A DNA stretch of 64,000 bases from IMG/VR virus record IMGVR_UViG_3300027759_000001. One strand, given 5' to 3'. Shown piece by piece: positions 2-54,049 of the stretch. Below the pieces are notes generated by a model. It was not told the DNA's origin. It worked only from the letters and a program-made list of their open reading frames with translations, and did not search any database. The first letter of the stretch is position 1; every line of letters starts with the position of its first letter. The stretch is from a virus (lineage: Duplodnaviria > Caudoviricetes). Made by a program: the position numbers and the translations under genes.

Positions 2-1966
2 TTAGCACCTGGTAATTATGTAGGTACAGTAACTGATAGTACGGGTTGTTCACAAACTTTAAATATTTATATTAATAATTCTAATGGGGTATTATTTGAT
101 TTAATTGTAACTCAACCAACAAGTGGTAATAATGGTCAAATTGATACTATTATATATAACGGAACACCAACATTTACATATGATTGGAGTCCAAACGTTA
201 ATGGTCAAACAGGATCAACCGTTACATCATTAAGTGGTGGTACATATAGTTTGGAGTTAACAGATTCAAGTGGATGTACATATGTAAAAACGGTTACTTT
301 AACAGGAACTAATAAAAAATTAAGTTATCAAACATATAACATATGTAATGATAATTTCCAAAATACGGGAATACTTGGTAAACGAGGTATGCAACAAATG
401 TTATCCGAAGGTTTTGCAGATTTAACATATGATGATACTGGATGTGTTATTATTAGTGCTGATTTTATCGCGGATATTACCGTTGATGGTGTAAATACTC
501 AAGAGTCCTTTTATGTTTCATCAGGATTAACGGATTATCCATCTGATTATACTTGGGGTCAAACTCTTATTGGAATTTTAGAAAGTTATGATGGTATCAG
601 TAAAGTTGAAATAGATTATGCGACTAATGAAATAAAAATTTATAATAAATGTGTTGAAATTGATGAATGTCAACCTCAAACTATTTATTATTTATCTGAT
701 GCAAATATTGTGATCAATTTGAAATTGGAATATAACATTTCTTGTTATCAATGTATTGTAACACCAACACCAACACCAACACAAACTTTAACACAAACAG
801 TAACGCCAACACAAACTTTAACACCTACGCAAACATTAACGCAAACTTTAACACAAACGGTAACTCCAACACAAACTTTAACATCAACACCAGGGTTATC
901 ACCTACGTCTACACCTACGCAAACATTAACACAAACGGTAGTACCAACGACTACACCTACGTTAACGCAAACGGTAACTCAAACATTAGATCCAACTGCA
1001 ACTCCAACACCTACACCTACATTAACACAAACATTAGCACCAACTGCAACTCCAACACCTACATTAACACAAACGTTAACACAAACATTAGCACCAACTG
1101 CAACTCCAACACCTACATTAACACAAACGTTAACGCAAACATTAGCACCAACTGCAACTCCAACACCTACATTAACACAAACGTTAACACAAACATTAGC
1201 ACCAACTGAGACTCCTACACCTACATTAACACAAACATTAACGCAAACAGTTACAAGAACTTTAACTCCAACTCCAACTAATACTCAGACATTAACACAA
1301 ACATTAGCGCCAACTGAGACTCCTACACCTACATTAACACAAACGTTAACACAAACATTAGCGCCAACTGAGACTCCTACACCTACATTAACACAAACAG
1401 TTACGCAAACATTAGCACCAACTGAGACTCCTACACCTACATTAACACAAACACCTACGCCTACATTATCACCAACGTCTACACCTACGCCTACATTAAC
1501 ACAAACGGTAACACCAACTCCAACACCAGCAACATTTGCTGATTGTATTGAAGGGACTATACCAAAGTATACTAATTACGACTATTACCCATGTTGTTAT
1601 CCTTACTCAAAAATAATTGGAACAACTGGTGGTTCTCCGGAGACTGTATGTTATAATCCTTTTTCTGCTTCCACAAATGTTACTCCAGTTTCACCTCAAG
1701 TAATTTGTAATATACCCCTATTAACTAGTTGTTGTCAAATTCAATTGGGTTACGATTTATCTGACAGTGTTGTGGCTTGTGGGGCGGTACAATCAACATA
1801 CTATATAAGTACCCCTTGTAAGGCTACTAGTTGTGATTTGAATGGTGCGTTCGCAATCTATACAGATAACTCTTGTACTACATTAGCACCTGACGGATAT
1901 TATTCGGATGGTATTGACTATGGATCACAATCTGGTGGAGTTTTTGCTTTTGTTGGTCCATGTTAA
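2..1966 (+). CDS. 5'-truncated virion-type protein with SprB-like repeats, a long Thr/Pro mucin-like tract and a Cys-rich C-terminus
   Basis: The frame of the 251..1966 ORF is open back to base 2 (LAPGNYVGTVTDSTGC...GTYSLELTDSSGC, SprB-like); TQTLAPTATPTP repeats follow. Confidence 0.8.
   Translation, partial: LAPGNYVGTVTDSTGCSQTLNIYINNSNGVLFDLIVTQPTSGNNGQIDTIIYNGTPTFTYDWSPNVNGQTGSTVTSLSGGTYSLELTDSSGCTYVKTVTLTGTNKKLSYQTYNICNDNFQNTGILGKRGMQQMLSEGFADLTYDDTGCVIISADFIADITVDGVNTQESFYVSSGLTDYPSDYTWGQTLIGILESYDGISKVEIDYATNEIKIYNKCVEIDECQPQTIYYLSDANIVINLKLEYNISCYQCIVTPTPTPTQTLTQTVTPTQTLTPTQTLTQTLTQTVTPTQTLTSTPGLSPTSTPTQTLTQTVVPTTTPTLTQTVTQTLDPTATPTPTPTLTQTLAPTATPTPTLTQTLTQTLAPTATPTPTLTQTLTQTLAPTATPTPTLTQTLTQTLAPTETPTPTLTQTLTQTVTRTLTPTPTNTQTLTQTLAPTETPTPTLTQTLTQTLAPTETPTPTLTQTVTQTLAPTETPTPTLTQTPTPTLSPTSTPTPTLTQTVTPTPTPATFADCIEGTIPKYTNYDYYPCCYPYSKIIGTTGGSPETVCYNPFSASTNVTPVSPQVICNIPLLTSCCQIQLGYDLSDSVVACGAVQSTYYISTPCKATSCDLNGAFAIYTDNSCTTLAPDGYYSDGIDYGSQSGGVFAFVGPC
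760..1530 (+). repeat. Imperfect tandem coding repeats (TLTQTLAPT[A/E]TPTP)
   Basis: Recurring cctacattaacacaaac and ttagcaccaactg units. Confidence 0.9.
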
Positions 1967-2061
1967 AAATATAATTAAATATTTGTAATGTCGTAATTTC
2001 ATTATCAAAACCTTTTTGATATAAAATTCACTTTTATTTATTATATAATATCTTTTAATAT

Positions 2062-3036
2062 ATGGAAAATATTCTTTTTGTAACCGCACAACCTGACGTA
2101 CCTTATTTTCATTGGCAAGTAAAATTATATACTCATAATTTTATTGATAAAGGAATTAAACCTTGTCAGATCCATGTAATTTTTGGATTACAAAAAAAAC
2201 AACAACCATCAAAAGGAGCATTAGAATTATGTGATTATGGTTACAATGTTCATTTCTACGATGACGACAGAGATAATAAATCTTATATACCAAGTATTAA
2301 ACCATATTTAATTTACCAATGGTTAAAGGAGTATCCTGAAAATAGTAAATTGTTTTTTCTTCATGATTCTGATATTATATTCAATAGATTACCTGATTTT
2401 GATAAATTATTAAATGATAATATTTCTTATTTATCTGACACCATAGGGTATATTGGTTACAACTACATTAAAGATTGTTGTGATAGATATGAGAAACAAC
2501 ACCCATCATCAAACAAAGAACAATTATTTCAAGAAATGGCTGACATAATTGGAATTGATGTTGATCTAATTAAACAAAATCAAGAAAATTCAGGTGGAGG
2601 TCAATACCTAATCAAAAATACGGATCCACTATTATGGGCTAAGATTTATGATGATTGTACACCATTATATAACCAAATGTTAGATTATCAAAAAAGATTT
2701 CCAATCAACCCTGGTCAAATACAATTTTGGACTGCAGAAATGTGGTCATTATTATGGAATATGTGGAATTCGGGATATAAGACAAAAATCACAAATGAAT
2801 TTGATTTTTCTTGGGCAACTGACGATATTAATATTTATAATGAAAAACCAATATTACATATGGCAGGTGTGACTGACCAATTAAAAACTACAAAATTTTA
2901 TAAGGGAGATTTCATAAACAGGAATCCAATTGAGGATTTAAGGAATGATAGTAGTTACTTCAATTATGTGGATAAAAATAGTTCCACAATTAAATATATT
3001 GAAGTAATGGAGTCATTTTTAGAAAAAAATAAATAA
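2062..3036 (+). CDS. Putative peptide O-glycosyltransferase (HPAT/SGT1-like, GT-A fold)
   Basis: YFHWQ motif, DxD motif (LHDSDIIF) and WTAEMW motif, resembling plant SGT1 YFDWQ / DADMI / WISEMY. Confidence 0.55.
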   Translation: MENILFVTAQPDVPYFHWQVKLYTHNFIDKGIKPCQIHVIFGLQKKQQPSKGALELCDYGYNVHFYDDDRDNKSYIPSIKPYLIYQWLKEYPENSKLFFLHDSDIIFNRLPDFDKLLNDNISYLSDTIGYIGYNYIKDCCDRYEKQHPSSNKEQLFQEMADIIGIDVDLIKQNQENSGGGQYLIKNTDPLLWAKIYDDCTPLYNQMLDYQKRFPINPGQIQFWTAEMWSLLWNMWNSGYKTKITNEFDFSWATDDINIYNEKPILHMAGVTDQLKTTKFYKGDFINRNPIEDLRNDSSYFNYVDKNSSTIKYIEVMESFLEKNK

Positions 3037-3053
3037 CTGATTATTTATTAGTA

Positions 3054-4379
3054 ATGGGAACTCAACCGATAATAGTAAAACCTGTAAATGAATGTGCAAT
3101 AATAACGTTATTTCCAATGACGGCTATATGTAATAGTATTAATCCAAGTACACCACAATCTTACGATGGATCAGTTAGTGTTTTGGTTAGTGGTGGTACT
3201 CCACCATATAATATTACTTGGGAAGAAGGTGGATCTGGACCAACAAAGTCTAATATTGGTGTTGGTAATTATCACGCAACCATAGTTGATTTTTATGGTG
3301 ATTTTACTGCAAATACAATATGTAGTTTAACTGCGGAAACAACCACAACCACAACTTCCACTTCAACAACTACTTTACCTGTTTATAGTGGTTTATGTAT
3401 GTATTTTACAAATACACATGGACCTAACTCGGAGACACATCAATTTTTATTTAATGGGTATTTAAATGGACAACCTACTTGGAAATCTGATGATAATTTA
3501 TATGATATATATTGGAGTACAGGAACAACAAATCAATGGTTAGTTGATGGATGGAGTAATGGTATTATTTATAATTCAAATACATCCACACCTCCATTAA
3601 CAGGATGGCAATTCTTAGGTGGAAGTTATTCTGCGTCATATGTAATTACTGTATTGGAAGGGGTTTGTGTGAGTAATCCTATGATTAATATGTCAATAAG
3701 TAAACAAGCACCAACTTGTGTTAATAATGGTAGTATTATTATAACTGCAAATGGTGGAACACCGGCATACCAATATTCAATTAATGGAGGAACTACGTAT
3801 CAATCAAGTCCGGTATTTAGTAATTTAGGTAGTGGTATTTATAGTGTTATGGCTAAAGATTCAAATAATATAACCACAACACAAAGTGTTACATTAACAT
3901 CAGCATCTGTTATTAACACTTATCAAATTCAATTACTTTTAACTGGTCCTAATTCTTTTAATATTCTAGTAACACCTACATTACCTAGTGGTACGTTTAT
4001 TACTTTTAATTTAACACATAATAGTACATTTAAATTAGCTCCTTCACCAACTGTGGCAACATATAATAATTTAGTTACGGTTATTGTTAATGGGACTCCA
4101 ATAACAACACCATCACCTATCTTAACTACAAGTACAACGTTTAATCCTTGTGATTCAGGATCAATTTACACAAAGATTAATGTAACTAATTGGAATACAA
4201 TAACATTTAATTCGTCAACTACAATAAGTGGTACTTTTACAAATACTATAAACCCAATAACACCTTTAGTTAATTGTTATAATGTTAGTGGTCAAAGTAA
4301 AATATTAATTAATAATGCTAAGTTGAATAAATGTGAATGTTGTAATCTTATAGTTAAAAATCCATCATATAATAAATAA
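3054..4379 (+). CDS. Thr-rich structural or adhesin-like protein with SprB-like repeats
   Basis: VSGGTPPYNITW and ANGGTPAYQYSINGG SprB-type motifs; poly-Thr linker; TATTTAT upstream. Confidence 0.65.
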   Translation: MGTQPIIVKPVNECAIITLFPMTAICNSINPSTPQSYDGSVSVLVSGGTPPYNITWEEGGSGPTKSNIGVGNYHATIVDFYGDFTANTICSLTAETTTTTTSTSTTTLPVYSGLCMYFTNTHGPNSETHQFLFNGYLNGQPTWKSDDNLYDIYWSTGTTNQWLVDGWSNGIIYNSNTSTPPLTGWQFLGGSYSASYVITVLEGVCVSNPMINMSISKQAPTCVNNGSIIITANGGTPAYQYSINGGTTYQSSPVFSNLGSGIYSVMAKDSNNITTTQSVTLTSASVINTYQIQLLLTGPNSFNILVTPTLPSGTFITFNLTHNSTFKLAPSPTVATYNNLVTVIVNGTPITTPSPILTTSTTFNPCDSGSIYTKINVTNWNTITFNSSTTISGTFTNTINPITPLVNCYNVSGQSKILINNAKLNKCECCNLIVKNPSYNK

Positions 4380-4409
4380 AAATTAACTAATAAACTATTT
4401 ATTGATTAA

Positions 4410-6923
4410 ATGAGTTATATATTAAAAAATACATCAGGGTTAGTTAACACTAGGATTACTGATACCGGAAGGTTAAAATTATCACAAGGTAATTTTAACA
4501 TATCTTATTTCCAAATTGGAGATAGTGAAGTGTCATATAATGAATTACCAAACACTTATAATCAATCAAATAGTGTTGTTTTAGAACCAAGTTTTAATAG
4601 TCAAAATAATGCTGGATCTCCTGAATCAAACAAACAAAATATTAAATACCCATATTATGTTGATGACAATAATAGTAATACTTATGGTATACCATTTATG
4701 GATTCTGTTATTGAACCTGTTTATAATAGAGCCCCACTAAGAGGATTTTTTACAGGTAATACAACTGCATCAACAATTAATTATAGTGCATTTACAGGAT
4801 CAAAATATGTTGTCACATCCAATTATATTGTTGATATGTCAACATTAGATGGTTCAAATCAAATAACAATTATTCAAGATATATGCGACCCAACAAATAC
4901 CAGTAAACCTGGTGTTGGAGATTTTATTACAATATATTATGATGGTTTAGCAAAATACGATTGTTCTTGTGTTAATTTACCGACACCGACACCAACGGCA
5001 ACAATAGGTACTACACCAACATTAACTAATACTCCCACTGCGTCAAATACTAATCTTGACCCGTGTGCGTCACCAACACCAACACCAACTCCATCGGCAA
5101 CACCTTGTTTGACACCATCAAATAAACCCGTTTGTCCTATACCACCTGACCCTTCATGTGTTAAACCTGTTCATTCATGTTTTCCAATATTAACATATCG
5201 GATTATTGATATATGTGAGAATAATGTGACTTTGGATAGACCAACACCTAATTATATTGGGTTAAGTACATATTGTTTTGGTAGAGTATTGGTATATCCA
5301 CCAAATATGACAACAATATACGATAGTATCACACCTCGTCCACATTGGTCAGATGATGTTATTAATTTTGAGTCAATTTGTGATATTGATCAGTTTGATG
5401 TGAAAGTATGGAATATGAATATTCCTTGGACGGAAAGTCCTGCGGGGTTAAGATCTACTGAATATGAAGATTATACTTATTTTGGTTCTATTGATTATAT
5501 TGGTAGTAAAGAATATTTTGGATACAATTCTACATCAGGACAAACTGATACAAGTTATGTGTATTATTATAACTCATTTGATGAAATTGTTCAGGTTAAA
5601 CCTGAGGAACAGAAGGCAATTGCAATTATACATTATACAAATCAAACTATAGATTTCTTCTATGGTGAGAAATTTGCGTTAGAACCTTATAATAACTCAA
5701 ACCCTGAAGATACAACAGGACAAGCAAGAAACTTTAAATTACATATGCCTACATTAATGTGGCATAAAAATCCTGAGTGTTGTTATGGTCAAACATTTTG
5801 GGTTGATCCTCCGGGATTTGAAGAAAAAGGTTTATTCCAAGTTCAATATATTAAGTCAACTAAGAATACTGATATGAATCAACCTGGTATTCGTTATTAT
5901 CACTTGTGGGACACTAATGCAAATGCGGATGGATTACCAAGTAGAGTTGGTAAAGTATTCCCTGATAGTAAATTAATTATTATTGATGATGAGGAAATTA
6001 TTGCGGCGTTATCATACAAGTCAAATAGAAACTGGACATTACCGGCACCACAGGTGTCTTTAATAACTCCTAATACTTGTGGTTTAACTACCTCAACAAC
6101 TGAAGGTATTTTAACAGGTAGTAGTGAAACTATGTTTGTTACTTATAGATTAAGTAATCCTTATAATTTTACTAATTCATTACATTCTAATTATTATTCT
6201 AAAATAATGGGTAATAATAATGATTGTAATCCTGACACATCTAAAAATGTAGCAGTTAGATTTGGTGCTGAGTTTAAATGTTTAACACAACCTGGATATA
6301 ATCCTGTTACAACTACAACAACTTATTCTCCATTAACAACTACTACAACTTATTTACCATTAACGACTACTACGACAACACATTGTCCAACTACTTGTGA
6401 TACACCTAATGGATTCTTTGCGACTAACTTCCAAGTAATTGCACAAAAAGTGGTAACAGGACAAAGACCTGATCCATCTAAATGGAAAGTTATTGACTAC
6501 ACTAGTTCGTTATCGGCAACAACAATAAATGGGTATATAACTGAAGATGGTTTAACTGGAACAACATTTGTTATTACACCTGATCTTTATAATAATTCAC
6601 CATATTATAATCTTAATAATTTTATTCCATTAACACCACTTGGTACTACCACACCTAATCTTAATTTTGGTGATGAGTACTATTTCTATGGGTCTTTTGA
6701 AAGTGATATACAGGCAACAATTTATGAGATGAGGTATAAAGTAAATTTAAGTTTCGCTGAATTCCAAACCACAACAAATCCTACATGGAAAAAAGGATCT
6801 AATTCTTATGTCACTGAGATTGCGTTACTTGATAGTAATAAAGATGTTATGGTTGTTTCTAAGATGCAATCACCGGTATTAAGACAAGGTATACAACAGT
6901 TTGTGGTTAAGTTAGATTTGTAA
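4410..6923 (+). CDS. Tail/baseplate-type structural protein with inserted TPTP and poly-T linkers
   Basis: N-terminal NTRITDTGRLKL..YFQIGDSE and C-terminal YVTEIALLDSNKDVMVVSKM motifs resemble tail-collar/baseplate proteins. Confidence 0.55.
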   Translation: MSYILKNTSGLVNTRITDTGRLKLSQGNFNISYFQIGDSEVSYNELPNTYNQSNSVVLEPSFNSQNNAGSPESNKQNIKYPYYVDDNNSNTYGIPFMDSVIEPVYNRAPLRGFFTGNTTASTINYSAFTGSKYVVTSNYIVDMSTLDGSNQITIIQDICDPTNTSKPGVGDFITIYYDGLAKYDCSCVNLPTPTPTATIGTTPTLTNTPTASNTNLDPCASPTPTPTPSATPCLTPSNKPVCPIPPDPSCVKPVHSCFPILTYRIIDICENNVTLDRPTPNYIGLSTYCFGRVLVYPPNMTTIYDSITPRPHWSDDVINFESICDIDQFDVKVWNMNIPWTESPAGLRSTEYEDYTYFGSIDYIGSKEYFGYNSTSGQTDTSYVYYYNSFDEIVQVKPEEQKAIAIIHYTNQTIDFFYGEKFALEPYNNSNPEDTTGQARNFKLHMPTLMWHKNPECCYGQTFWVDPPGFEEKGLFQVQYIKSTKNTDMNQPGIRYYHLWDTNANADGLPSRVGKVFPDSKLIIIDDEEIIAALSYKSNRNWTLPAPQVSLITPNTCGLTTSTTEGILTGSSETMFVTYRLSNPYNFTNSLHSNYYSKIMGNNNDCNPDTSKNVAVRFGAEFKCLTQPGYNPVTTTTTYSPLTTTTTYLPLTTTTTTHCPTTCDTPNGFFATNFQVIAQKVVTGQRPDPSKWKVIDYTSSLSATTINGYITEDGLTGTTFVITPDLYNNSPYYNLNNFIPLTPLGTTTPNLNFGDEYYFYGSFESDIQATIYEMRYKVNLSFAEFQTTTNPTWKKGSNSYVTEIALLDSNKDVMVVSKMQSPVLRQGIQQFVVKLDL

Positions 6924-6974
6924 AAAACTTTAGTTTTAACATCTTACTATTATATTATAATAAAACAATCTTTT

Positions 6975-7583
6975 ATGAGGACACCAATGAAAAATTCACC
7001 TAAAGTATTGGGATTAGACATCTCAACTAAAACAATAGGGTGGGCACTCTTTGATATTAAAACACAAGATTTATTAGAATTAACTCACGTATCTCCAAGA
7101 CCTAAAAATAAAGATACTGAGGAAAATAAGATGTTAGAATTAATATTAAAATCTGAAGTATTCAAAACTAAATTAGAGGATTATAAAAAATTAGGGATTG
7201 TAAGTGTTATTATTGAAGAACCATTATTAAACTCTAATAATGTTTATACAATCCAAACTTTATTAAGATTTAATACGTTAATATGTAAAACAATTTATGA
7301 TGTGTTAGGTATTGTTCCTGAATTTATATCAACTTATAACTCAAGAAAATTTGCATTCCCCGAATTAGTTCAAGAAAATGATAAAAAGAAACACGTTTTA
7401 TTTGGAGGACTTCCTAAGGACATTGATAAGAAAATGATCATATGGGAGTTGGTTGCAAAAAAAGAACCTCAGATCCAATGGCAATATACAAGAAACAATA
7501 CTTTGAAGAAAGAAAACTTTGACCAAACAGATGCTTATGCTTGTGTGTTAGGTTATATGAGAAGTAAAGAAATTTGGAATTAA
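6975..7583 (+). CDS. ruvC: RuvC-like Holliday junction resolvase
   Basis: VLGLDISTKTIGWA, IIEEP and DQTDAYA catalytic acidic motifs. Confidence 0.8.
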   Translation: MRTPMKNSPKVLGLDISTKTIGWALFDIKTQDLLELTHVSPRPKNKDTEENKMLELILKSEVFKTKLEDYKKLGIVSVIIEEPLLNSNNVYTIQTLLRFNTLICKTIYDVLGIVPEFISTYNSRKFAFPELVQENDKKKHVLFGGLPKDIDKKMIIWELVAKKEPQIQWQYTRNNTLKKENFDQTDAYACVLGYMRSKEIWN

Positions 7584-7609
7584 TATCGTTTAATTTACCG
7601 ATAATTTAG

Positions 7610-7640
7610 AATATCGTCTTTTCGGACGATATTTTTTTTT
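7610..7640. terminator. Intrinsic terminator between convergent genes
   Basis: AATATCGTC-TTTTCG-GACGATATT followed by a T run. Confidence 0.85.
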
Positions 7641-7651
7641 ATTTATAAATT

Positions 7652-9934
7652 TTAATTAGTTGCACAATACCCACCAACTACTACAGTGATTATAACAAAA
7701 CTTGATGTTGATGTTGGTACGGAACTTGAACACGTTTTATTATACTTTTGAGAATTAATAGTTTGTATTATTGGTAAACCTGTGCCACAGTCGGTATATG
7801 TATATGTTAAAGGTTGAATAAAAGTGTTATTTATTAAGTATTGTATACAAGCAGGACGTGTTAATGTAGGTGTTGGTGTTGGCGTACCTGTTGGTGTTGG
7901 TGTTGGTGTTTGAGTGTTTACAATTAAACATTGTGAACAATACCCTTCAGATTCAGGACCTAAAATATTTGTTAAAACTATAGTACTAACACCACCAATA
8001 TCACTTACAAATCCATCATACACAACACAAGTAGATATACCATTAATAAATGATTCATATACATATCCTTTATCTGGTGTATTACCTAAAGGATCTAAAA
8101 CAACATCTGTTGTGTAATATAAGAACCCTGTATTACATTCTTTAAAACGTTTACTACCATTACATATAATATAATCGTCAAACGTGTTAAACACGACTGA
8201 CCCATCAAAATTACAATTATATTGTGGTGATGGGGTTGGAGTTGCAATCATTTTACCACTTGTTGCGGTAGGTGTCGGTGTTAATACATTTGCAGTTACC
8301 GATATTCCTTTACCACCACAAATTTCAGTTGCGGTAGGTGTTTGGGTTGGTGTAGGTGTTGGAGTTCCAGTTACGGTTGCCGTCGGGGTTAAAGGTAACT
8401 CACAATCAAACGCAGCTTCAAAAGATATTGGTTGACAATATTGTGTTGGTGTTGGAGTTGGAGTAGGACAAGATCCATTAGTGAAAAAATCATCACATAA
8501 ATCAGGACAATCAGTATTACAAGGTGATGGACCAAATAAATAACAATCACCATCTAATGAGTCTGACAAACACCAACGATTGCTATCTGATGAAAAATAA
8601 ATAACTAAACCATTTGTTTGACCAAGCCAAAAAAGTTGTTCATTCCATGTACCACCACTAATATATGTATCATCATAAGCAATGTCACCTGTTGAAATAC
8701 AATAAGATTCATAAGGACATATAATTGGTGGTTCGGGGCAAATATCGCAAAAATTATATTTAACACAGGTATTATCACAAGAATTATAAATATAACCTGA
8801 TGAGCAAGTGTAACCTGAAGTTGAATATACACCAGCATTAGATTGTACTAAAGTTGCTTGGGTTTTACCCGACGATGTAAATAAAATATTAAGATCCGAA
8901 TATAATGTTGCGGAATTTAATTCGGGTAATGTGTTATCATAAATTTCACAACCAAAACCACCATATGAATCATCATTTCGGCCATATAATTCAATAATGT
9001 GGTTACCTGAATTCAAAGTTAACGGGTAAATATTCCATCTTTTATATGTCTTACCCGCGGAGTCCCAATATGTTGATAAACTAGAGTCAACAATTGTGGT
9101 ACCATCAATTTTTAATTTAAAATCATTATCACCACCAATACCTATATAATATGTTTTTGTTTCTTCTATATCAATACATTGACTGAAACCAAGCCATACA
9201 TCATATGGAGGTGCGACAGTTGGATAACTAACAGTCCATACACCACATCTATTTAATGGGCCACCAGTGGTATTAAATAAGGGATTATCCCATAAAGTAT
9301 TTGAAGGTAATAGTACATAATCACCACCACCTGGGTTCGTAAAACCTAAAATACTATAACCTGGATTATAAACAAATGACCCATATACACTATATTGTGA
9401 ATACCCTATATCAACAAAAGATATTGGTGTTAAAGGAGCGGTTGCGGAAACAACCTCCAATGAATAACACTGAGTTTCACTATAAGCCGAATAACTTGGG
9501 CCGCATTCTATACAACTACCTGTACAAATTGTTGTTGGGGTAGGTGTTGGAGTAGGTGTTGATGTTAATACAGGTGTTGATATTGTTGCCGTTGGTGTTA
9601 GTGTTGGTGTTAGTGTTGGTGTCGGTGTTGGAGTACTTGTTTCTCTTGATGATGATGTTGTTGGTGTTGGTGTTGTTGTTAGTGTTGGGGTTGGGGTATT
9701 AGTTAAACAAGGATCAATATCGTCTATTCCTCCTTTAATATGATCAAGGTGGTAAAGATTAGTGCCGTTAGAATACCATGATAAATCAGTTGCCTGAGTT
9801 GAACAACCAGGGTTTGTATATAACATTTGTCCAATACTTAAACTATTACCATAAAGGGTAAGAGTAAATGGTCCTGAACACAACCCTGTTGGAGATGCGT
9901 TTCCAACTGTAAACGTTCCTAAATTAACACACAT
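7652..9934 (-). CDS. Cys/Thr/Pro-rich structural protein with a PA14-like domain
   Basis: GDNDFKLKIDG...LTLNSGNHIIELYG (PA14-like); several TPTPT tracts. Confidence 0.65.
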   Translation of the reverse strand: MCVNLGTFTVGNASPTGLCSGPFTLTLYGNSLSIGQMLYTNPGCSTQATDLSWYSNGTNLYHLDHIKGGIDDIDPCLTNTPTPTLTTTPTPTTSSSRETSTPTPTPTLTPTLTPTATISTPVLTSTPTPTPTPTTICTGSCIECGPSYSAYSETQCYSLEVVSATAPLTPISFVDIGYSQYSVYGSFVYNPGYSILGFTNPGGGDYVLLPSNTLWDNPLFNTTGGPLNRCGVWTVSYPTVAPPYDVWLGFSQCIDIEETKTYYIGIGGDNDFKLKIDGTTIVDSSLSTYWDSAGKTYKRWNIYPLTLNSGNHIIELYGRNDDSYGGFGCEIYDNTLPELNSATLYSDLNILFTSSGKTQATLVQSNAGVYSTSGYTCSSGYIYNSCDNTCVKYNFCDICPEPPIICPYESYCISTGDIAYDDTYISGGTWNEQLFWLGQTNGLVIYFSSDSNRWCLSDSLDGDCYLFGPSPCNTDCPDLCDDFFTNGSCPTPTPTPTQYCQPISFEAAFDCELPLTPTATVTGTPTPTPTQTPTATEICGGKGISVTANVLTPTPTATSGKMIATPTPSPQYNCNFDGSVVFNTFDDYIICNGSKRFKECNTGFLYYTTDVVLDPLGNTPDKGYVYESFINGISTCVVYDGFVSDIGGVSTIVLTNILGPESEGYCSQCLIVNTQTPTPTPTGTPTPTPTLTRPACIQYLINNTFIQPLTYTYTDCGTGLPIIQTINSQKYNKTCSSSVPTSTSSFVIITVVVGGYCATN

Positions 9935-29076: not shown

Positions 29077-29985
29077 ATGAATAATGAAAACTATTACGGG
29101 GTTTTAGGTGTTGATGAAAAGGCAACACAAGAAGACATCAAGAAGGCATATAGAAACCTAGCAAAAGAAAATCATCCTGACAAAGGTGGGGATGAAGAAA
29201 AGTTTAAGAAGATCACTGAGGCGTATGATACGATTGGAGACGCAAATAAACGAAGTCAATACGATAATCAACGGAGTAACCCATTTGGTGGTAATTTTGC
29301 TGATATGTTTCATTCATTCAATCAACAACGACAAAGACAAGATACTCACACTAGTGTGATTACGGTGAACATAGGGGTGTTGGATTCATATTTAGGTAGG
29401 AATAAACAAATTACATATAAGAGAAAGACTAGTTGTAATGTTTGTAGTGGATCAGGAGGGGAGAAGAAGGTATGTACTACCTGTAATGGTATTGGTAGTG
29501 TTATGAAACAAATGGGTACGGGTATGTTCGTACAAGTTGTTAATATGATGTGTGATACTTGTTCAGGTACTGGTAAAATTACTATAAATGCTTGTTATTC
29601 GTGTAATGGATCGGAGACTAAAGATGAAATGAAAACATTGGATGTTAAAATACCTCATGGGTTAGAGGATGGTCAGTTCATAAGAATGTCAAATGTTGGT
29701 GATTTTAGAAATGGTAGATTTGGGGATTTGGTTATAAGGGTTAATTTAATGGAAGAAAATGGTTTCTTTAAGAACGGACCACATTTAATATATAACTCTT
29801 ATTTAAACTATGAAGATCTTATAAAGGAGGATATAAACATACCTCATCCTGATGGTGAGTTAAATATTAAATTACCTAAGTTATTTGATTCCTCAAAACC
29901 TTTGAGAGTTAAAGGTAAAGGATTTAAGGTAGATCAAATTGGGGATCTATTAATTAATCGGATTGTTAGGTTTGAAAGACCTTAA
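29077..29985 (+). CDS. dnaJ: DnaJ chaperone
   Basis: J-domain HPD, four CxxCxGxG-type repeats, DnaJ C-terminal domain. Confidence 0.92.
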
Positions 29986-31145: not shown

Positions 31146-33035
31146 ATGGAATTAATTAAGGTATTAACATCTGTCATAAAAGAAAATACAAACGGTAAAC
31201 GTATTGTAAGTGAGGCAATGTCTGAAAAAGTCATTAAATTTTTAATTGACAAATTTAAACCTACAACTAGAGATACTGAAGAACAAATTACGGCAGTTAT
31301 TAACGCATTTGAGAAATATAAAAATGGGTTACCTCAAGATCAAAGAGATATCACCAAATTAACTTATACTATTGTTAAGAACATTGTTTTATCAAAAGAG
31401 ATTAAAAAACAAGAAAAAAGTATATTCAAAAAATATATGGAAGCCAATAAAGGTGCCGACAAAAATGCGGTTAAATTGGCATTACGTAAGTTTTACGAAT
31501 TGTTTCCAATCCTACCTATAAATCAAAGAGACGTTCTTAAAATGCCTTATTTGAAATTGGTTGAGTTTTTACAGAGTAAGTTTAATACTATGTTAACATC
31601 AGCGGCACTTAAGAAATTTAAAGATGATAAGGTTAATGTAACACCTGAACAATTAATTTATTATGTTTCAACATATTTGGATCTATATCATAGGTTACCT
31701 GCAAATTTACCACCATTGTTGTTTATGAGTTTTGATGAACTTGAACATACATTAGATGGTATGGGAGATTTAACTGATGACATTAAAGATACAAAAGATG
31801 ATTATTCTGACATTGAAACAATATATGATGATGATAACTTATTAATCTTCAAACCAAGTGGTAAGGAACAATGTATTAAATTGGCTAACGGAAGAAGTTG
31901 GTGTATATCTAAATCAGGTGGTGGTAATATGTATTACAATTATCGTTTGGGTAATAACTTAACAATTTATTATGTTATTGATAAAGATAAACCATTTGGT
32001 GACCTTAACTATTCAGTTGTCATCTTAGTTGAGCCTTATGGTGGAAAACGAATTGCGGATGGTCAAAATATGTCAGGAGGTTATTCAGGTCATAGGAGAG
32101 AAGAATGGAGTACAATTGTAGGTAAAGTTCCAAAATTAAAAGGTAAAGAACATTTGTTTGTTGCGGATCCATTGAGTACTGCTGAACAAAAAGTACTGAA
32201 TGACTACAAAAATACTACCATCAATAAAGATGCGATTAAAGAACTTGGTAGTGAACAAGCAGCTGAAATGTGGCTTGAGCTTTCAAGTCCTGATTTAACA
32301 TATAGAAGTAATGGTGATGAAATTTATCGTAACTTTACCGAAAATCTTAAAAACAAATACTTAGGGTTGGGAATGGACTTGACCGCTGAAATGATTAATA
32401 ATTCTGAACCTAGTGTGTTGAAATATTATGCAGCAAGAAAACTTCAAGGTTTGATGTCAAAAAGTTTAGGTCAATTGAGTGATTCCGATATTGCATTCAT
32501 CAATAGTCCTATAATGAGAGATAATAAGAAAAAATTAAGAGAAAAATTCTCAGGTCAATTAGCCGGAGTTAGTAGTAGTGGTTATGTTGGTCTTGAATAT
32601 CCAAAAGATGATAACTCTAAGTATGTTGCATTATTTGGGTTTGATGATTTCTTTCAACATATTCCAACTAATACAACTATGATCCAAATGGAAAATACAA
32701 GTAAAACTCCAATTGCTTTGGATTTACCGGAAAGTATTGGTAAATTAACCGAATTAAAAACATTGATTATTGATAATATGGTTAAGTCAATCCCTGAAAG
32801 TATTGGAAATTGTACCAAATTGAAATTTATAAACTTACCTAATAACCCACAATTGGAAAGTATTCCTGAGGCGTTTGGTGAATTGTATTGTTTGAACTTC
32901 TTCTCAACGGAGAATTCAAATCCTGGTATGAGAATACCTAAAAAATTAGAAGAATATATGACAGAGGATGAAGGATTTTGGTTTATCAATTTCCCTCCTG
33001 AATTGAAGAAACATTGTGGACCTATAAGATCTTAA
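31146..33035 (+). CDS. Late protein with a WCIS domain and C-terminal leucine-rich repeats
   Basis: CIKLANGRSWCIS; LPESIGKLTELKTL, IPESIGNCTKLKFINL, IPEAFGELYCL. Confidence 0.75.
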   Translation: MELIKVLTSVIKENTNGKRIVSEAMSEKVIKFLIDKFKPTTRDTEEQITAVINAFEKYKNGLPQDQRDITKLTYTIVKNIVLSKEIKKQEKSIFKKYMEANKGADKNAVKLALRKFYELFPILPINQRDVLKMPYLKLVEFLQSKFNTMLTSAALKKFKDDKVNVTPEQLIYYVSTYLDLYHRLPANLPPLLFMSFDELEHTLDGMGDLTDDIKDTKDDYSDIETIYDDDNLLIFKPSGKEQCIKLANGRSWCISKSGGGNMYYNYRLGNNLTIYYVIDKDKPFGDLNYSVVILVEPYGGKRIADGQNMSGGYSGHRREEWSTIVGKVPKLKGKEHLFVADPLSTAEQKVLNDYKNTTINKDAIKELGSEQAAEMWLELSSPDLTYRSNGDEIYRNFTENLKNKYLGLGMDLTAEMINNSEPSVLKYYAARKLQGLMSKSLGQLSDSDIAFINSPIMRDNKKKLREKFSGQLAGVSSSGYVGLEYPKDDNSKYVALFGFDDFFQHIPTNTTMIQMENTSKTPIALDLPESIGKLTELKTLIIDNMVKSIPESIGNCTKLKFINLPNNPQLESIPEAFGELYCLNFFSTENSNPGMRIPKKLEEYMTEDEGFWFINFPPELKKHCGPIRS

Positions 33036-39658: not shown

Positions 39659-39841
39659 ATGGGTTTTAACAAAAGATTTTTAAAGAAAGAGAACATCCTT
39701 AATCACCTTACAGATATTATGAATTATTTAGATGCCGACGCAGTGTTGTGTACGGATGAATTTTCACGCAATGTCTACAGGATGTTTAATGAGGGAAAAA
39801 ATGAGGAAGAAATAATAAAATACATAAATAAAAATAAATGA
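39659..39841 (+). CDS. Hypothetical protein
   Basis: Coupled ORF. Confidence 0.55.
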   Translation: MGFNKRFLKKENILNHLTDIMNYLDADAVLCTDEFSRNVYRMFNEGKNEEEIIKYINKNK

Positions 39842-40956
39842 AAGTTAAGTTAGAATATGTGTGGATTGACGGATATACACCGGAGCCAAACCTTAGAAGT
39901 AAGATTAAAATTGTGGACTATGAGCAAATTAAAAATTGTTTAGTTCTAAATAATTTCCCTGAATGGAACTTTGATGGGTCATCAACATTACAAGCGGAAG
40001 GTAATAGTTCTGATTGTATTTTAATACCTGTTAGACATTATTTTTGTGATAATACAAACACAATTTACGTGTTGTGTGAAGTAATGAATTCTGATGGTAC
40101 ACCACACGAAACTAATACAAGATCAAAACTAATTGGAGATCAAGAAGATTTGTGGTTTGGGTTTGAACAAGAATATTTTATCTACGATAGAAATAACAAA
40201 TGTATTTTAGGACACAATGAAAACAACTTGGAACCACAAGGTAAATATTATTGTGGTGTTGGTGAATATGTTGCAGGAAGAGATTTTGTTGAGGAACATA
40301 TGGATATGTGTTTAAAATACGGAATTGATATTACAGGGATCAACGCTGAGGTTGCATTAGGTCAATGGGAATACCAAGTATTTTCAAAAGGTAAATTAAA
40401 GGCAGGTGATGATTTGTGGATGACCAGATACTTTTTATATAAAATCTCTGAAAAATATAATTATGGGATTGATCTACATCCAAAACCAATTCAAAAAGGG
40501 GAATGGAACGGGTCAGGACTTCATACAAATTTCTCCACAGATAAAATGAGAAATGATGGTAACGAAAAATATTTTATATCATTGTTTAATGCGTTTGAGG
40601 TAAGACATGAAGCCCATATTAAATCTTACGGGTCAGATAACAATCTTCGTTTAACTGGTAAATTTGAAACACAATCAATTGATAAATTTAGTTGGGGGGT
40701 TTCAGATCGTGGGGCATCAATTAGAGTTCCAAGAGATACTGCAAAAAATTGGAAAGGTTATGTTGAGGATAGAAGACCTGGATCAAATGCTGACCCATAC
40801 AAAATTATTAAAGAAATTGACATATCTTTAAATACTACCGATCAAATCTACGATGTTAAAATAATGATGAGTAAGGATTTTGATATGGAAGGTCTTAATG
40901 AAAAATACGGAACAATTTCAAATGATGAATTATTAAAAGAATATAGAGAAGAATAA
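39838..40956 (+). CDS. glnA: Glutamine synthetase, type II-like (auxiliary metabolic gene)
   Basis: LEYVWIDG, WNFDGSST, GFEQEY, NAEVALGQWEYQ, WNGSGLHTN, RLTGKFET, EDRRPGSN. Confidence 0.92.
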   Translation: MKVKLEYVWIDGYTPEPNLRSKIKIVDYEQIKNCLVLNNFPEWNFDGSSTLQAEGNSSDCILIPVRHYFCDNTNTIYVLCEVMNSDGTPHETNTRSKLIGDQEDLWFGFEQEYFIYDRNNKCILGHNENNLEPQGKYYCGVGEYVAGRDFVEEHMDMCLKYGIDITGINAEVALGQWEYQVFSKGKLKAGDDLWMTRYFLYKISEKYNYGIDLHPKPIQKGEWNGSGLHTNFSTDKMRNDGNEKYFISLFNAFEVRHEAHIKSYGSDNNLRLTGKFETQSIDKFSWGVSDRGASIRVPRDTAKNWKGYVEDRRPGSNADPYKIIKEIDISLNTTDQIYDVKIMMSKDFDMEGLNEKYGTISNDELLKEYREE

Positions 40957-41222
40957 TGGAAAAAGAATGTGTATGTGGAGCTAACGTATTTTGTGAGTGC
41001 CCTCCAATAAAAGTAGAACAAGTTAATCATCCTAACCATTACGGAGGAGAGGATAATCCTTATGAAGCAATAAAAGTTATTGATGCTTGGGATTTAGGAT
41101 TTAGTTTAGGAAATACTGTAAAGTATATTTCAAGAGCTGGAAAAAAAGATAAAGAGTTACAGGACCTTAAGAAAGCATTATGGTACTTGCAACATCATAT
41201 AGAAACATTAGAGAAAAAATGA
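40956..41222 (+). CDS. DUF3310-family protein
   Basis: VNHPNHY...GNTVKYISRAGKK...DLKKALWYL. Confidence 0.85.
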   Translation: MEKECVCGANVFCECPPIKVEQVNHPNHYGGEDNPYEAIKVIDAWDLGFSLGNTVKYISRAGKKDKELQDLKKALWYLQHHIETLEKK

Positions 41223-42154
41223 AAATAGTAGTAACAGGAGGAGCGGGGTTTATAGGATCCGCATTTATAAATCACCTATTAGATAACTTTGAATGTGATG
41301 TTCTTTGTGTTGATAAACTAACATACGCTGGTCGTAGAATGAATATTAAACACAATGTTTCTTTTTTACAAAAAGACATTTGTGATGTAACGGAAGATGA
41401 ACTTGGTGATTTTGATTACATGGTTCACTTTGCTGCTGAGTCTCACGTTGATAATTCAATTAAGAATGGGTTACCATTTGTTAGAACTAATGTTGAAGGA
41501 ACATTTAATTTATTGGAGATATCAAGAAAAAATAAGAACCTTAAAAAATTCATACACATTTCAACTGATGAGGTATATGGTGATATGGATGAACACATTG
41601 CAATTAATCATACTGCAACTGAAGATGATAGTTTAAAATCTAGTTCCTATTATTCTGCAACTAAAGCGGCATCTGATATGTTAGTGTTATCTGCTAATAG
41701 AACTTATGGTTTACCATATATCATCACAAGAACTTGTAATAATTTTGGTGAACATCAGTTTGAGGAAAAATTCTTACCAACAATTGCAAGATCTATCGGT
41801 GAAGGTAAACCAATTCCAGTTTATGGTGACGGATTACAAGTTAGAGAATGGATGTATGTTTATGATAATGTAAAAGTCATTTGTGATTTAATGTTTGACG
41901 ATGAGATTGTAAATACCACTTATAATATTGGAACAACTTTCAGAGTGACAAATTTGGACATTATTAAAAATATTTCTTATATTTTAAACAAAGAGGTTGA
42001 TGTTAAATACGTTGAAGACAGATTAGGTCATGATAGGAAATATGGTCTTAATTGTACAAAATTAAGAGAATATTATATAACTAAAAATGGGGAGGTTCCT
42101 AAGTTTTTAAATTTGTTTGATTACTTAGATAGACAATATGGTGGTGAAAAATAA
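41219..42154 (+). CDS. rfbB: dTDP-glucose 4,6-dehydratase
   Basis: VTGGAGFIGS, DKLTYAG, HFAAESHVD, STDEVYG, YSATK; ATGA overlap fixes the start at 41219. Confidence 0.92.
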   Translation: MKIVVTGGAGFIGSAFINHLLDNFECDVLCVDKLTYAGRRMNIKHNVSFLQKDICDVTEDELGDFDYMVHFAAESHVDNSIKNGLPFVRTNVEGTFNLLEISRKNKNLKKFIHISTDEVYGDMDEHIAINHTATEDDSLKSSSYYSATKAASDMLVLSANRTYGLPYIITRTCNNFGEHQFEEKFLPTIARSIGEGKPIPVYGDGLQVREWMYVYDNVKVICDLMFDDEIVNTTYNIGTTFRVTNLDIIKNISYILNKEVDVKYVEDRLGHDRKYGLNCTKLREYYITKNGEVPKFLNLFDYLDRQYGGEK

Positions 42155-42677: not shown

Positions 42678-43526
42678 ATGATAGAAACAGGAAAAATTAT
42701 AAGTGGAGATTGTATTGAAGTAATGAAAACATTACCTGAAGGATCTGTGGACTTAATTTGTACATCGCCTCCATATGGAGTCGGTATTGCTTATGATGTA
42801 CACGACGACGATGTTGAATTTGATGAGTATTTAGTATTTGCTAAGAACTGGTTAACTGAAGCGTATAACGTATTAAAAGATGATGGTCGTATTGCACTTA
42901 ACATTCCTTATGAGATTAACAGACAAAAAAAAGGTGGGAGAATTTTCTTTGTTTCTGAGATGTATCAGTTAATGAAACAAATTGGATTTGGATTCTTTGG
43001 TATCGTTGATCTTGAAGAACAATCACCACATAGATCTAAGACAACGGCATGGGGTTCTTGGATGAGTCCATCAAGTCCGTATATTTATAATCCAAAGGAG
43101 TGTGTAATATTAGCATACAAAAAACACCACATTAAAAAGGTTAAAGGAGAACCTCAGTGGAAAGGGACACCTACTGACATTGAACAGGAAGATGGGTCAT
43201 TAAAGAAAAAAATTGTATATGAGGAGAAGGATAAGAAAGAGTTTATGGAACTTGTGTTTGGTCAGTGGAATTACTTTGCAGATACTAAATCACTCACCAA
43301 GGCGACTTTCTCAATGGACATACCGACCAAGGCAATTAAGATACTATCCTACAAGAACGATGTAATATTAGATCCATTTGCTGGTTCAGGTACAACATTA
43401 GTAGCGGCTCAGATATTAGAACGTAGATGGTTAGGTATTGAGTTAAGTGAAAATTACAAACAAATTGCCGAAACAAGAATTAATTATTTCAAAGCTTTAG
43501 AACAAATAAAAGAACTCCCACTATAA
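42678..43526 (+). CDS. DNA methyltransferase (N4-C/N6-A, beta class)
   Basis: TSPPY motif IV precedes ILDPFAGSGTT motif I. Confidence 0.88.
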   Translation: MIETGKIISGDCIEVMKTLPEGSVDLICTSPPYGVGIAYDVHDDDVEFDEYLVFAKNWLTEAYNVLKDDGRIALNIPYEINRQKKGGRIFFVSEMYQLMKQIGFGFFGIVDLEEQSPHRSKTTAWGSWMSPSSPYIYNPKECVILAYKKHHIKKVKGEPQWKGTPTDIEQEDGSLKKKIVYEEKDKKEFMELVFGQWNYFADTKSLTKATFSMDIPTKAIKILSYKNDVILDPFAGSGTTLVAAQILERRWLGIELSENYKQIAETRINYFKALEQIKELPL

Positions 43527-52930: not shown

Positions 52931-54049
52931 ATGGAAAATAATAATAGTGTATGTTATGTTGGTTTGATCGGTGAGATTATACCAATAGAAGGTGCGGATA
53001 ACATTGAACTTGCATTGGTTGGTGGTTGGCAAGCCATCACCAAGAAAGGTGAATACCAAGTTGGTGATATGGTTGTCGTTGCAACCACTGATGCGGTTAT
53101 ACCACAAAAACTTTCTGATGACTTAGGTGTTACAAGTTATCTTCGTAAAGGTCAGAGAGTAAGAACTATAAAACTTCGTAAGGTTTATTCTGAATGTTTA
53201 ATAATACCAATAGGGTTTGTTCCGGAAAAATATAGATATGATGGTTCTGACTGCATGGAGTTACTTGAAGTGTTTAAATACGAACCACCAGTTAAGATGG
53301 TTCAGTTAAGTGGAGGTAGAAAATTTAAATACCACCAAAACCCTAACTTTCATGTTTACTACAAGTTTCCTAACTTAAAGAACGCACCTGAAATGTTTAA
53401 CGAGGAAGACATAGTTACTGTTACTCGTAAACTTCACGGAACAAATGCTCGTTATGGAATTGTTAGAAAGAAAAGATTTTCAATATTTGATAGAGTTAAA
53501 AAATTGTTTGGGGTTCAATGGGTAGGATATGAATACGTTTACGGATCTCATAATGTAGAAAAAGGTTCTGACTCTCAAGGGTTTTATGAAACTGATGTAT
53601 GGAGAGACACTTCTGAAAATTATCAAATCAAAGAAAAACTTTGGAAGTTTGTAAAAACATTTGGGTCTGAGGAATTTTTGGGTGATGGGTTAATCATCTA
53701 TGGTGAGATATATGGTCATGGGATCCAAAAAAATTACAATTACGGACTTGAAGATATAAAGTTTGCTGGTTTTGATATTGAATTAAATGGTAAATACTTA
53801 CCACACCACGATGAAAAAAACATCTTTGAAGGTTTGGACTTACCAAGAGTTGAAGTTCTTTATATGGGTCCATGGTCTAAAGATGAGCAAGACAAACACG
53901 TATTTAACAACATGATTAAAGGAACCAAAGTTCCACACGAAGGTGTTGTTGTTAAATCTGTTACTGGTGATAGACATAAAGTTGGTAAAGTTATCAATCC
54001 TGACTACTTGATCTATGGTGAAAAAAATAACGTAGGTGACTCCCATTAA
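52931..54049 (+). CDS. RNA ligase (DRB0094/Rnl2-like, with N-terminal OB/tRNA-binding domain)
   Basis: IEGADNIELA..GWQAI OB domain; RKLHGTN motif I, YGEIYG, FDI, EGVVVK, K..NPDYL. Confidence 0.85.
   Translation: MENNNSVCYVGLIGEIIPIEGADNIELALVGGWQAITKKGEYQVGDMVVVATTDAVIPQKLSDDLGVTSYLRKGQRVRTIKLRKVYSECLIIPIGFVPEKYRYDGSDCMELLEVFKYEPPVKMVQLSGGRKFKYHQNPNFHVYYKFPNLKNAPEMFNEEDIVTVTRKLHGTNARYGIVRKKRFSIFDRVKKLFGVQWVGYEYVYGSHNVEKGSDSQGFYETDVWRDTSENYQIKEKLWKFVKTFGSEEFLGDGLIIYGEIYGHGIQKNYNYGLEDIKFAGFDIELNGKYLPHHDEKNIFEGLDLPRVEVLYMGPWSKDEQDKHVFNNMIKGTKVPHEGVVVKSVTGDRHKVGKVINPDYLIYGEKNNVGDSH

Follow-up and report, generated by a model that had tools for sequence, protein, structure and literature searches.

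A phage enzyme resembling plant peptide O-glycosyltransferases co-occurs with threonine-rich tracts in neighbouring structural and fibre-like proteins: a candidate system for virion O-glycosylation

What would a bacterial virus do with an enzyme whose closest named structural counterparts attach sugars to repetitive tracts of plant structural proteins? This question is raised by a 64,000-nucleotide (nt) stretch of DNA from a Caudoviricetes virus (IMG/VR record IMGVR_UViG_3300027759_000001; hereafter the window, meaning the whole stretch analysed), where a gene at 2062..3036 (+) lies among genes encoding long threonine/proline tracts. An earlier note, made from the letters of the sequence, had likened the gene product to the plant HPAT/SGT1 peptide O-glycosyltransferases and had proposed that the phage glycosylates its own tail or fibre linkers. 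Here, we examined the enzyme family, its predicted fold, its genomic positions and its association with threonine-rich tracts. We consider it probable that 2062..3036 encodes a cytoplasmic threonine O-glycosyltransferase that decorates virion proteins. The idea of virion glycosylation gains strong comparative support from tracts that follow the enzyme from phage to phage and are absent from orthologous proteins of enzyme-free phages, the grounds being comparative and structural inference.

The open reading frame (ORF) 2062..3036 (+) is open and intact and encodes 324 amino acids (aa). It contains the three motifs singled out in the earlier note, namely YFHWQ (aa 15-19, nt 2104-2118), DSD (aa 102-104, nt 2365-2373) and WTAEMW (aa 223-228, nt 2728-2745). 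An alignment of 50 family members sharing 31-73% identity with the window enzyme revealed that W18, D102, D104, W223, M227 and H266 are invariant, and that Y15, Q19 and W228 are conserved in at least 90% of the sequences. As the three motifs fall on invariant or near-invariant columns, they represent family signatures rather than chance strings. The enzyme is a full-length match to phrog_4417 (E 2.2e-70, residues 6-317 on profile positions 3-289 of 293), a large phage family whose PHROG annotation is “function unknown”. An exhaustive search retrieved 837 cluster representatives (clusters at 50% identity) at E <=1e-3, and a word-indexed search more than 1,300 related proteins, the best 120 of which share 67-96% identity and are mostly metagenomic. 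Full-length tblastn matches were found in 77 deposited phage genomes, with hosts in Enterococcus, Lactobacillus, Staphylococcus, Lactococcus, Clostridium and Chryseobacterium; the best cultured match is Chryseobacterium phage MA9V-3, at 39% identity. The window enzyme sequence gave nothing significant in Pfam (no match at E up to 1), NCBIfam or the PDB sequences, and a profile search with the enzyme family against the PDB sequences gave nothing significant either. Some longer family members are fused to a second glycosyltransferase (GT) domain, either PF11397 GlcNAc, Glyco_transf_7C/GT2 or O-FucT, which is an independent pointer to glycan synthesis. Hydropathy analysis detected no membrane segment (maximum 19-residue Kyte-Doolittle value of 0.44) and the first beta strand lies at the very start of the protein; lacking a hydrophobic segment, the enzyme would work in the cytoplasm.

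An AlphaFold model computed with the family alignment reached a predicted local distance difference test (pLDDT) score of 97.5 and a predicted template modelling (pTM) score of 0.94. The model is a single-domain, Rossmann-like alpha/beta/alpha GT-A fold that superposes on solved GT-A glycosyltransferases, with the DxD motif (D102-S-D104) coming after strand 97-100. Structure comparison with the PDB returned 107 chains at Z >=8, with Z up to 14.9 and glycosyltransferases as the top-ranked matches, and Foldseek returned 352 PDB matches at E <=1e-3. The best solved structures by Z are glycogenin (14.9), LgtC (14.2), the Skp1 alpha-galactosyltransferase (14.2), the UGGT catalytic domain (14.0) and GlyE (13.6), an enzyme from the glycosylation of serine-rich-repeat adhesins, and the matches of the GT8/GT24 type at Z 13.6-14.9 align over 213-243 residues with a root-mean-square deviation of 3.4-4.0; XXYLT1 and WbbM are also among the structural matches. 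When the comparison was made with the predicted structures of reviewed UniProt (Swiss-Prot) entries, Arabidopsis SGT1 and the HPAT/RDN/PLENTY/NOD3 proteins came out on top, with template modelling (TM) scores by query of 0.56-0.64 and E down to 8e-11 over residues 4-323. The GT8 galactinol synthases ranked clearly below them, with TM by query of 0.42-0.47, predicted structures standing on both sides of this comparison. The cluster library of the AlphaFold database (AFDB) agreed with this ranking: three members of the enzyme’s own family and one unspecific nucleotide-diphospho-sugar transferase headed the list, followed by protist HPAT-like domain proteins. The plant likeness is hence borne out at the level of fold, SGT1 and HPAT coming first in the structure search, but it does not extend to sequence membership of families GT95 and GT96: in searches with hidden Markov models, Pfam HPAT (PF23452) matched 1 of the 50 family members, at E 0.38. 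The ESM Atlas places the Pfam HPAT family on 10% of the members of one sibling phage cluster. Pfam Glyco_transf_8 (PF01501) matched none of the 50 members at E up to 10.

The closest named predicted structures thus belong to GT96 (SGT1, the peptidyl-serine alpha-galactosyltransferase of plants and algae) and GT95 (the hydroxyproline O-arabinosyltransferases HPAT1-3, RDN, PLENTY and NOD3), two families that are mutually related and whose plant members are Golgi type II membrane proteins (PMC8012813). A fold-prediction study treats both as families of unknown fold, GT96 having no crystal structure (PMC8476585). The plant enzymes are initiating O-glycosyltransferases acting on repetitive Pro-rich tracts of structural proteins, which recalls the setting of the phage gene. 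They differ from the phage enzyme in being membrane-anchored in the Golgi, whereas the latter lacks an anchor, would react in the cytoplasm and serves a virus of a bacterial host. They also differ in sequence (13-16% identity) and in acceptor, which is Ser or hydroxyproline (Hyp) in Ser-Hyp4 in plants and would more likely be Thr in poly-Thr or Thr-Pro (TP) tracts in phages. The GT8/GT24 enzymes share with the phage family the DxD motif and a later invariant His, as family-level features only, and several of them modify cytoplasmic proteins; they differ by the absence of any sequence match and by TM scores lower than those of the SGT1/HPAT models. A viral parallel is offered by A64R of chlorovirus PBCV-1 (Z 11.4 over 190 residues), a soluble, cytoplasmic GT-A enzyme whose substrate is the major capsid protein. 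This match is much weaker than those to GT8 and HPAT/SGT1, and A64R belongs to a eukaryotic virus and to a different family. PBCV-1 capsid glycans are N-linked, at atypical sites.

The position of the family in other phages points to the particle. In seven siphophage lineages, the enzyme gene comes after a capsid or tail-tube gene: directly after the major tail protein in phiFL1A, phiCTP1 and PMBT8, directly after the major capsid protein in R3.3, R9.1 and 4995_1, and separated from the major capsid protein by a single 129-aa poly-Thr ORF in iLp84. In MA9V-3, the homolog lies between Baseplate_J and a Gp10_C baseplate protein, with a Thr-rich tract in the gene upstream of the enzyme. The neighbouring structural proteins carry poly-Thr tails. 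The tail protein of phiFL1A contains ...NGTTTTTSTTTTTTSSTTTTTTTQASSK and its capsid protein ...GETTTTTKPTTTTTKPTTTTTTTQG; phiCTP1 gp18 contains ...EETTTTTNAPITTTTTTV, the VPE25 tail protein ...TTTDTTTTTTTTTTAGK and the adjacent structural protein of PMBT8 ...ASTTTTTTTTTTTTTTTTQSHIL. Capsid and tail protein alike bear such tails in iLp84 and R9.1, and 4995_1 has one on its capsid protein. In Lactobacillus phage Semele (locus L217, 5988..6990), two small proteins encoded just upstream of the enzyme consist of a short globular domain followed by long poly-Thr/TTTVKP repeats and look, from their sequences, like dedicated glycan-carrier decoration proteins. In a metagenomic representative picked regardless of tracts (P0151), the ORF immediately preceding the enzyme gene encodes a long poly-Thr tract.

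Counted by lineage, poly-Thr or TP tracts occur in adjacent capsid, tail-tube or fibre-like genes in 11 of 12 enzyme-bearing lineages. As controls, we used seven enzyme-free records from the SPP1-type tail-protein family (Javan47, Javan505, Javan377, SPP1, phiJL-1, ATCC8014 and phiLpTT2), the absence of the enzyme being established by whole-record searches in which positive controls were detected. Although their capsid and tail genes are orthologous, no poly-Thr run lies closer than 5 kb to the tail gene in any of the seven. Two contrasts within this set come close to natural experiments. R3.3 possesses the enzyme and the poly-Thr tails, both of which are missing from its congeners phiJL-1, ATCC8014 and phiLpTT2; the capsid proteins of phiFL1A and Javan47 share a C-terminal core, ...EIPEGVVEATI, after which phiFL1A runs on into poly-Thr and Javan47 ends in ...EADKEVPGAVPGG.

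The same association was seen around the relatives of the window enzyme. Among 80 IMG/VR loci centred on the enzyme gene in related jumbo phages, 76 contain a run of at least six Thr or a (TP)4 or longer repeat, the four exceptions being truncated loci; such a run or repeat was present in 4 of 80 viral loci chosen as controls for carrying an acidic repeat, (GAN)9. Co-occurrence with Thr-rich tracts was seen both across distant lineages (11 of 12) and within the clade (76 of 80). The reverse approach consisted of a blind IMG/VR scan for the repeat (ACN)9. Of the 80 loci obtained, 58 have an in-frame run of at least eight Thr, and in five the enzyme gene, 32-35% identical to that of the window, lies directly downstream of the poly-Thr ORF; family members are present in 0 of the 80 (GAN)9 control loci. 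The enrichment is in the predicted direction. Poly-Thr is clearly not exclusive to the enzyme, and many of the (ACN)9 loci are giant-virus or other contigs.

Within the window, tracts were defined as 12-aa stretches with at least 75% Thr plus Pro in ORFs of at least 80 aa. By this fixed criterion, they occur in 2..1966, 3054..4379, 4410..6923 and 7652..9934 and in no other ORF of the 64 kb, which confirms the Thr/Pro tracts described for these four genes and makes them exclusive to the surroundings of the enzyme. The four products are candidate acceptors. The first, 2..1966 (+), is the 3' part of a larger gene (893 aa in the nearest relative) and encodes about 268 aa of TPTPTLTQT-type repeats (aa 249-516, nt 746-1549) between Cys-rich globular parts. 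The underlying DNA is a 54-bp tandem array of 10.6 copies with 83% match, and this longest tract is probably still expanding. Homologs occur in 73 of the 80 related loci. The 155-aa NTNTN... ORF at 742..1209 (+, frame 1) is the TP-repeat DNA read in another frame, hence an artefact and not a gene. Immediately downstream of the enzyme, 3054..4379 (+) encodes a 441-aa SprB-repeat protein (Pfam SprB repeat, E 3.5e-10) with a poly-Thr tract, ETTTTTTSTSTTT, at about nt 3336-3380; its product is likely a fibre or adhesin-like protein, judging from its sequence, and homologs were found in 77 of the 80 loci.

The third candidate acceptor, 4410..6923 (+), is a conserved 837-aa protein with two T-rich tracts (aa 187-250, nt 4968-5159, and aa 624-663, nt 6279-6398), each bracketed by invariant cysteines. 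It has orthologs in 72 of the 80 related loci, and in 17 of 18 orthologs both tracts are kept in place despite a drift in length and sequence; one ortholog has poly-Thr at a site occupied by TP in the others. This drift, together with the replacement of TP by poly-Thr, indicates that what is conserved is Thr content, not proline or the exact sequence. Such conservation is in keeping with a role as acceptor or brush and argues for modification at Thr. The fourth candidate, 7652..9934 (-), is a Cys-rich protein of 760 aa with four TP tract regions (nt 9497-9727, 8222-8410, 7835-7936), a weak PA14-like stretch that is a hint only (E 0.042), and homologs in 59 of the 80 loci.

The window has no near-identical DNA match in the phage collection searched. 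Its relatives show the wider gene setting. The nearest record, whose enzyme is 95% identical, is an 86-kb fragment (29% complete as estimated by CheckV), in which Baseplate_J precedes the enzyme by 16 kb in the same orientation. Relatives whose enzymes are 66-69% identical correspond to contigs of 274-318 kb rated 93-100% complete, and in the complete ones the order is tail sheath, Baseplate_J, about 20 kb of large genes and then the enzyme. In a relative of 290,887 bp, these features follow one another on one strand, with the sheath at 34 kb, Baseplate_J at 61 kb and the enzyme at 81.5 kb, before the replication genes. The order of sheath and Baseplate_J in the relatives identifies a jumbo contractile-tailed phage (myophage) with the enzyme at the distal end of the tail module. 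Judging from where they lie, how large they are, their Cys-rich modules and the adhesin-type repeat, the flanking proteins are putative fibre or baseplate-peripheral components. A strong hairpin terminator at 7608..7635, with a 12-bp stem followed by a T run, separates the plus-strand block from the convergent minus-strand gene 7652..9934. It is the sole convincing terminator in the first 10 kb, none comparable occurring between 1 and 7600, so that the enzyme gene and its neighbours probably share a transcript; a sigma-70 promoter scan gave counts equal to those of shuffled sequences. The low GC content of the window (about 30%), the SprB repeats and the MA9V-3 match suggest a host among the Bacteroidota.

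Taken together, these data lead us to propose the following mechanism. The enzyme would be a soluble, cytoplasmic, metal-dependent GT-A glycosyltransferase that binds a nucleotide sugar through the DxD motif (D102, D104), and probably H266, with a divalent metal. It would move the sugar to Thr hydroxyls in unstructured poly-Thr or Thr-Pro tracts of newly made phage structural proteins, before or during assembly. In the window phage, the sugar would be placed on the linkers between domains in the four large, Cys-rich, fibre-like proteins encoded on either side of the enzyme gene; in the small Bacillota siphophages, it would be placed on the C-terminal poly-Thr tails of major capsid and tail-tube proteins. 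The expected outcome is a mucin-like glycan brush on the particle, which could serve to keep the linkers stiff and hydrated, to shield against proteases or antibodies, or to promote adhesion. Because the fold is GT8/SGT1-like, the chemistry is probably retaining, by analogy with GT8 and SGT1. Thr is a more likely acceptor than Ser or Hyp, an argument drawn from the pure poly-Thr, without Pro, of the Bacillota phages; we regard the tracts as putative acceptors and Thr as the residue probably modified. A common host uridine diphosphate (UDP) sugar is an economical guess for the donor, since the small temperate phages have no annotated sugar-synthesis genes in the regions examined.

The question of the donor had also been approached through an RmlB gene of the window, thought capable of feeding the sugar donor pathway. 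The gene, 41180..42154 (+), encodes an RmlB-like dTDP-glucose (deoxythymidine diphosphate glucose) 4,6-dehydratase (TIGR01181, E 8e-92), and as a donor supplier it is unsupported: it lies 38 kb from the enzyme gene and scores 307.7 bits, below the TIGR01181 cut-off of 365. It is kept in three of the relatives examined (G001, G002 and G004) and absent from the complete, enzyme-bearing G003, and none of the four has an RmlA-type nucleotidyltransferase. We hence abandoned this part of the earlier proposal. The complete 274-318 kb relatives do contain 7-8 genes of the GT2 family, clustered far from the tail module (at about 219-220 kb and 271-280 kb in G002, and likewise in G003 and G004). They give these phages a large capacity for making glycans, and could extend the glycans or serve another purpose.

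These additional glycosyltransferases bear on two other explanations. The tracts might be glycosylated with the enzyme extending or branching a sugar begun by the host or by another phage enzyme. XXYLT1, the Skp1 alpha-galactosyltransferase, UGGT and GlyE, all structural matches, act on an already attached sugar, the fusions to a second GT domain indicate multi-step glycans in some phages, and the GT2 genes of the relatives would be in keeping with such a scheme. We nevertheless judge it unlikely, since the nearest named folds, SGT1 and HPAT, are those of initiating peptide transferases, and since phiFL1A, R3.3, iLp84 and 4995_1 have no other annotated glycosyltransferase in the structural region, which leaves the enzyme as the sole phage-encoded candidate initiator there.

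Alternatively, the enzyme could glycosylate an envelope polymer of the host, such as teichoic acid, lipopolysaccharide or capsule, thereby blocking superinfection or altering receptors, the tracts being plain flexible linkers. Many GT-A/GT8-like enzymes make envelope glycans, LgtC and WbbM being present among our structural matches; the 7-8 further GT2 genes of the complete relatives testify to an investment in glycan synthesis; and in Semele and in a metagenomic lineage described below (L341) the enzyme gene does not lie in an annotated structural block. This explanation fits poorly with an enzyme devoid of a membrane segment and with the location of the gene in temperate phages, where it belongs to the late head-tail operon, immediately follows the capsid or tail-tube gene and lies away from the lysogeny genes. 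It also leaves unexplained why orthologous capsid and tail proteins bear poly-Thr tails only in phages that possess the enzyme, and we accordingly give it little credence. The glycosylation of modified bases in phage DNA to evade restriction, a classical role of phage glycosyltransferases of diverse folds (review PMC12619734) that the DNA-metabolism genes and CcrM-like methyltransferase of the window might bring to mind, is very improbable for a gene found in head/tail operons instead of nucleotide-metabolism modules, present in 36-40 kb temperate phages, tracking poly-Thr protein tails and without a DNA glycosyltransferase among its top structural matches.

Several observations weigh against our preferred reading of the enzyme as a threonine O-glycosyltransferase acting on virion proteins. 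Thr/Pro linkers are common inter-domain spacers for which glycosylation is not required. One ortholog of 4410..6923 (L067:12413-14704) lacks both tracts and has short Cys-to-Cys spacers instead, in a locus where the enzyme gene is present. The one lineage of 12 that departs from the association is L341 (Logan contig SRR29775265_20, 72.5 kb; 401..7931), where the enzyme is fused to Glyco_transf_7C/GT2 and lies between radical SAM and LanC-like genes; no Thr-rich tract was detected in the flanks available though the enzyme is present, and the enzyme may have a different use there, for example on a modified peptide. As for the statistics, the Fisher test of 11 of 12 against 0 of 7 (p 1.6e-4) makes no correction for kinship, and the reverse test, 5 of 80 against 0 of 80, reaches only modest significance (p 0.029). 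Assigning the window’s flanking proteins to the virion rests on module position and the SprB repeat: beyond that repeat and low-complexity phrog_15511 matches, PHROGs and Pfam contain no structural-protein family matching them, and an AlphaFold model of the 837-aa protein built from 18 orthologs reached a pLDDT of 41.4 only. In the ESM Atlas, the flanking proteins matched unnamed viral clusters only, and a phmmer comparison of the window neighbours with those of the enzyme homolog in MA9V-3 gave no match. The earlier proposal of tail or fibre linker glycosylation agrees with the tracts and with the tail-module position, from which the assignment of the neighbouring proteins to the particle is deduced. 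Finally, we found in the literature no biochemical or mass-spectrometric report for any phage bearing a member of this enzyme family.

In the literature searched, natural glycosylation of phage virions is represented by mycobacteriophages only. As described in the citing papers, enzymes encoded by these phages are held to add sugars to capsid and tail-tube subunits at their C-termini, reducing antibody recognition (Freeman et al. 2023, Cell Host Microbe 31:1216, via PMC12619734, PMC12691614). On that description, the C-terminal placement corresponds to the poly-Thr tails of capsid and tail-tube proteins in Bacillota phages, and in both systems the glycosyltransferase gene lies in or beside the structural operon. 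The hosts differ, being Actinomycetota on the one hand and Bacillota and Bacteroidota-type bacteria on the other, and so do the tracts of the window, which are internal linkers of large fibre-like proteins and not C-terminal tails. A targeted literature search found no paper on the phrog_4417 family or on poly-Thr tags in phages. What would be new is virion O-glycosylation by a different, uncharacterised family, remotely related to GT95/GT96, using a simple Thr-rich tag over a wide host range.

We tentatively extend this proposal to a portable two-part module, composed of a soluble glycosyltransferase and a poly-Thr or Thr-Pro tag, that may O-glycan-coat chosen virion proteins (capsid, tail tube, decoration proteins or fibres) in phages as unlike as the 36-kb temperate siphophages that infect Bacillota and the 300-kb jumbo myophages whose hosts are probably Bacteroidota. 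The enzyme family would then be a prokaryotic-virus relative of GT95/GT96, which glycosylate extensins in plants and algae. If true, virion O-glycosylation would be widespread in phages rather than a peculiarity of mycobacteriophages, spanning the phages of enterococci, staphylococci, lactobacilli, clostridia and environmental Bacteroidota-type hosts. This would bear on phage therapy through immune clearance and particle stability, on the ecology of dairy and gut phages and on how the fuzzy density of capsids and tails is read. A PHROG of at least 837 clusters (50% identity) would acquire a function, and the plant GT95/GT96 enzymes would gain their first relative that is both soluble and tractable. 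A minimal enzyme-plus-tag pair for producing O-glycoproteins in bacteria, of use in glyco-engineering, would also suggest itself.

Elsewhere in the window, several genes deserve mention in their own right. The ORF 39838..40956 (+) encodes a GlnII-type glutamine synthetase (NF041605, E 1e-100; Pfam Gln-synt_N and Gln-synt_C), an auxiliary metabolic gene of a kind unusual among phages, and 29077..29985 (+) a full-length phage DnaJ-type co-chaperone (TIGR02349, E 1e-66). A CcrM-like adenine DNA methyltransferase is encoded at 42678..43526 (+) and an RNA ligase with a PHA02142 OB-fold domain at 52931..54049 (+). The 629-aa product of 31146..33035 (+) contains leucine-rich repeats near its C-terminus (LRR_14, E 6e-6), proteins with such repeats being uncommon in phages.

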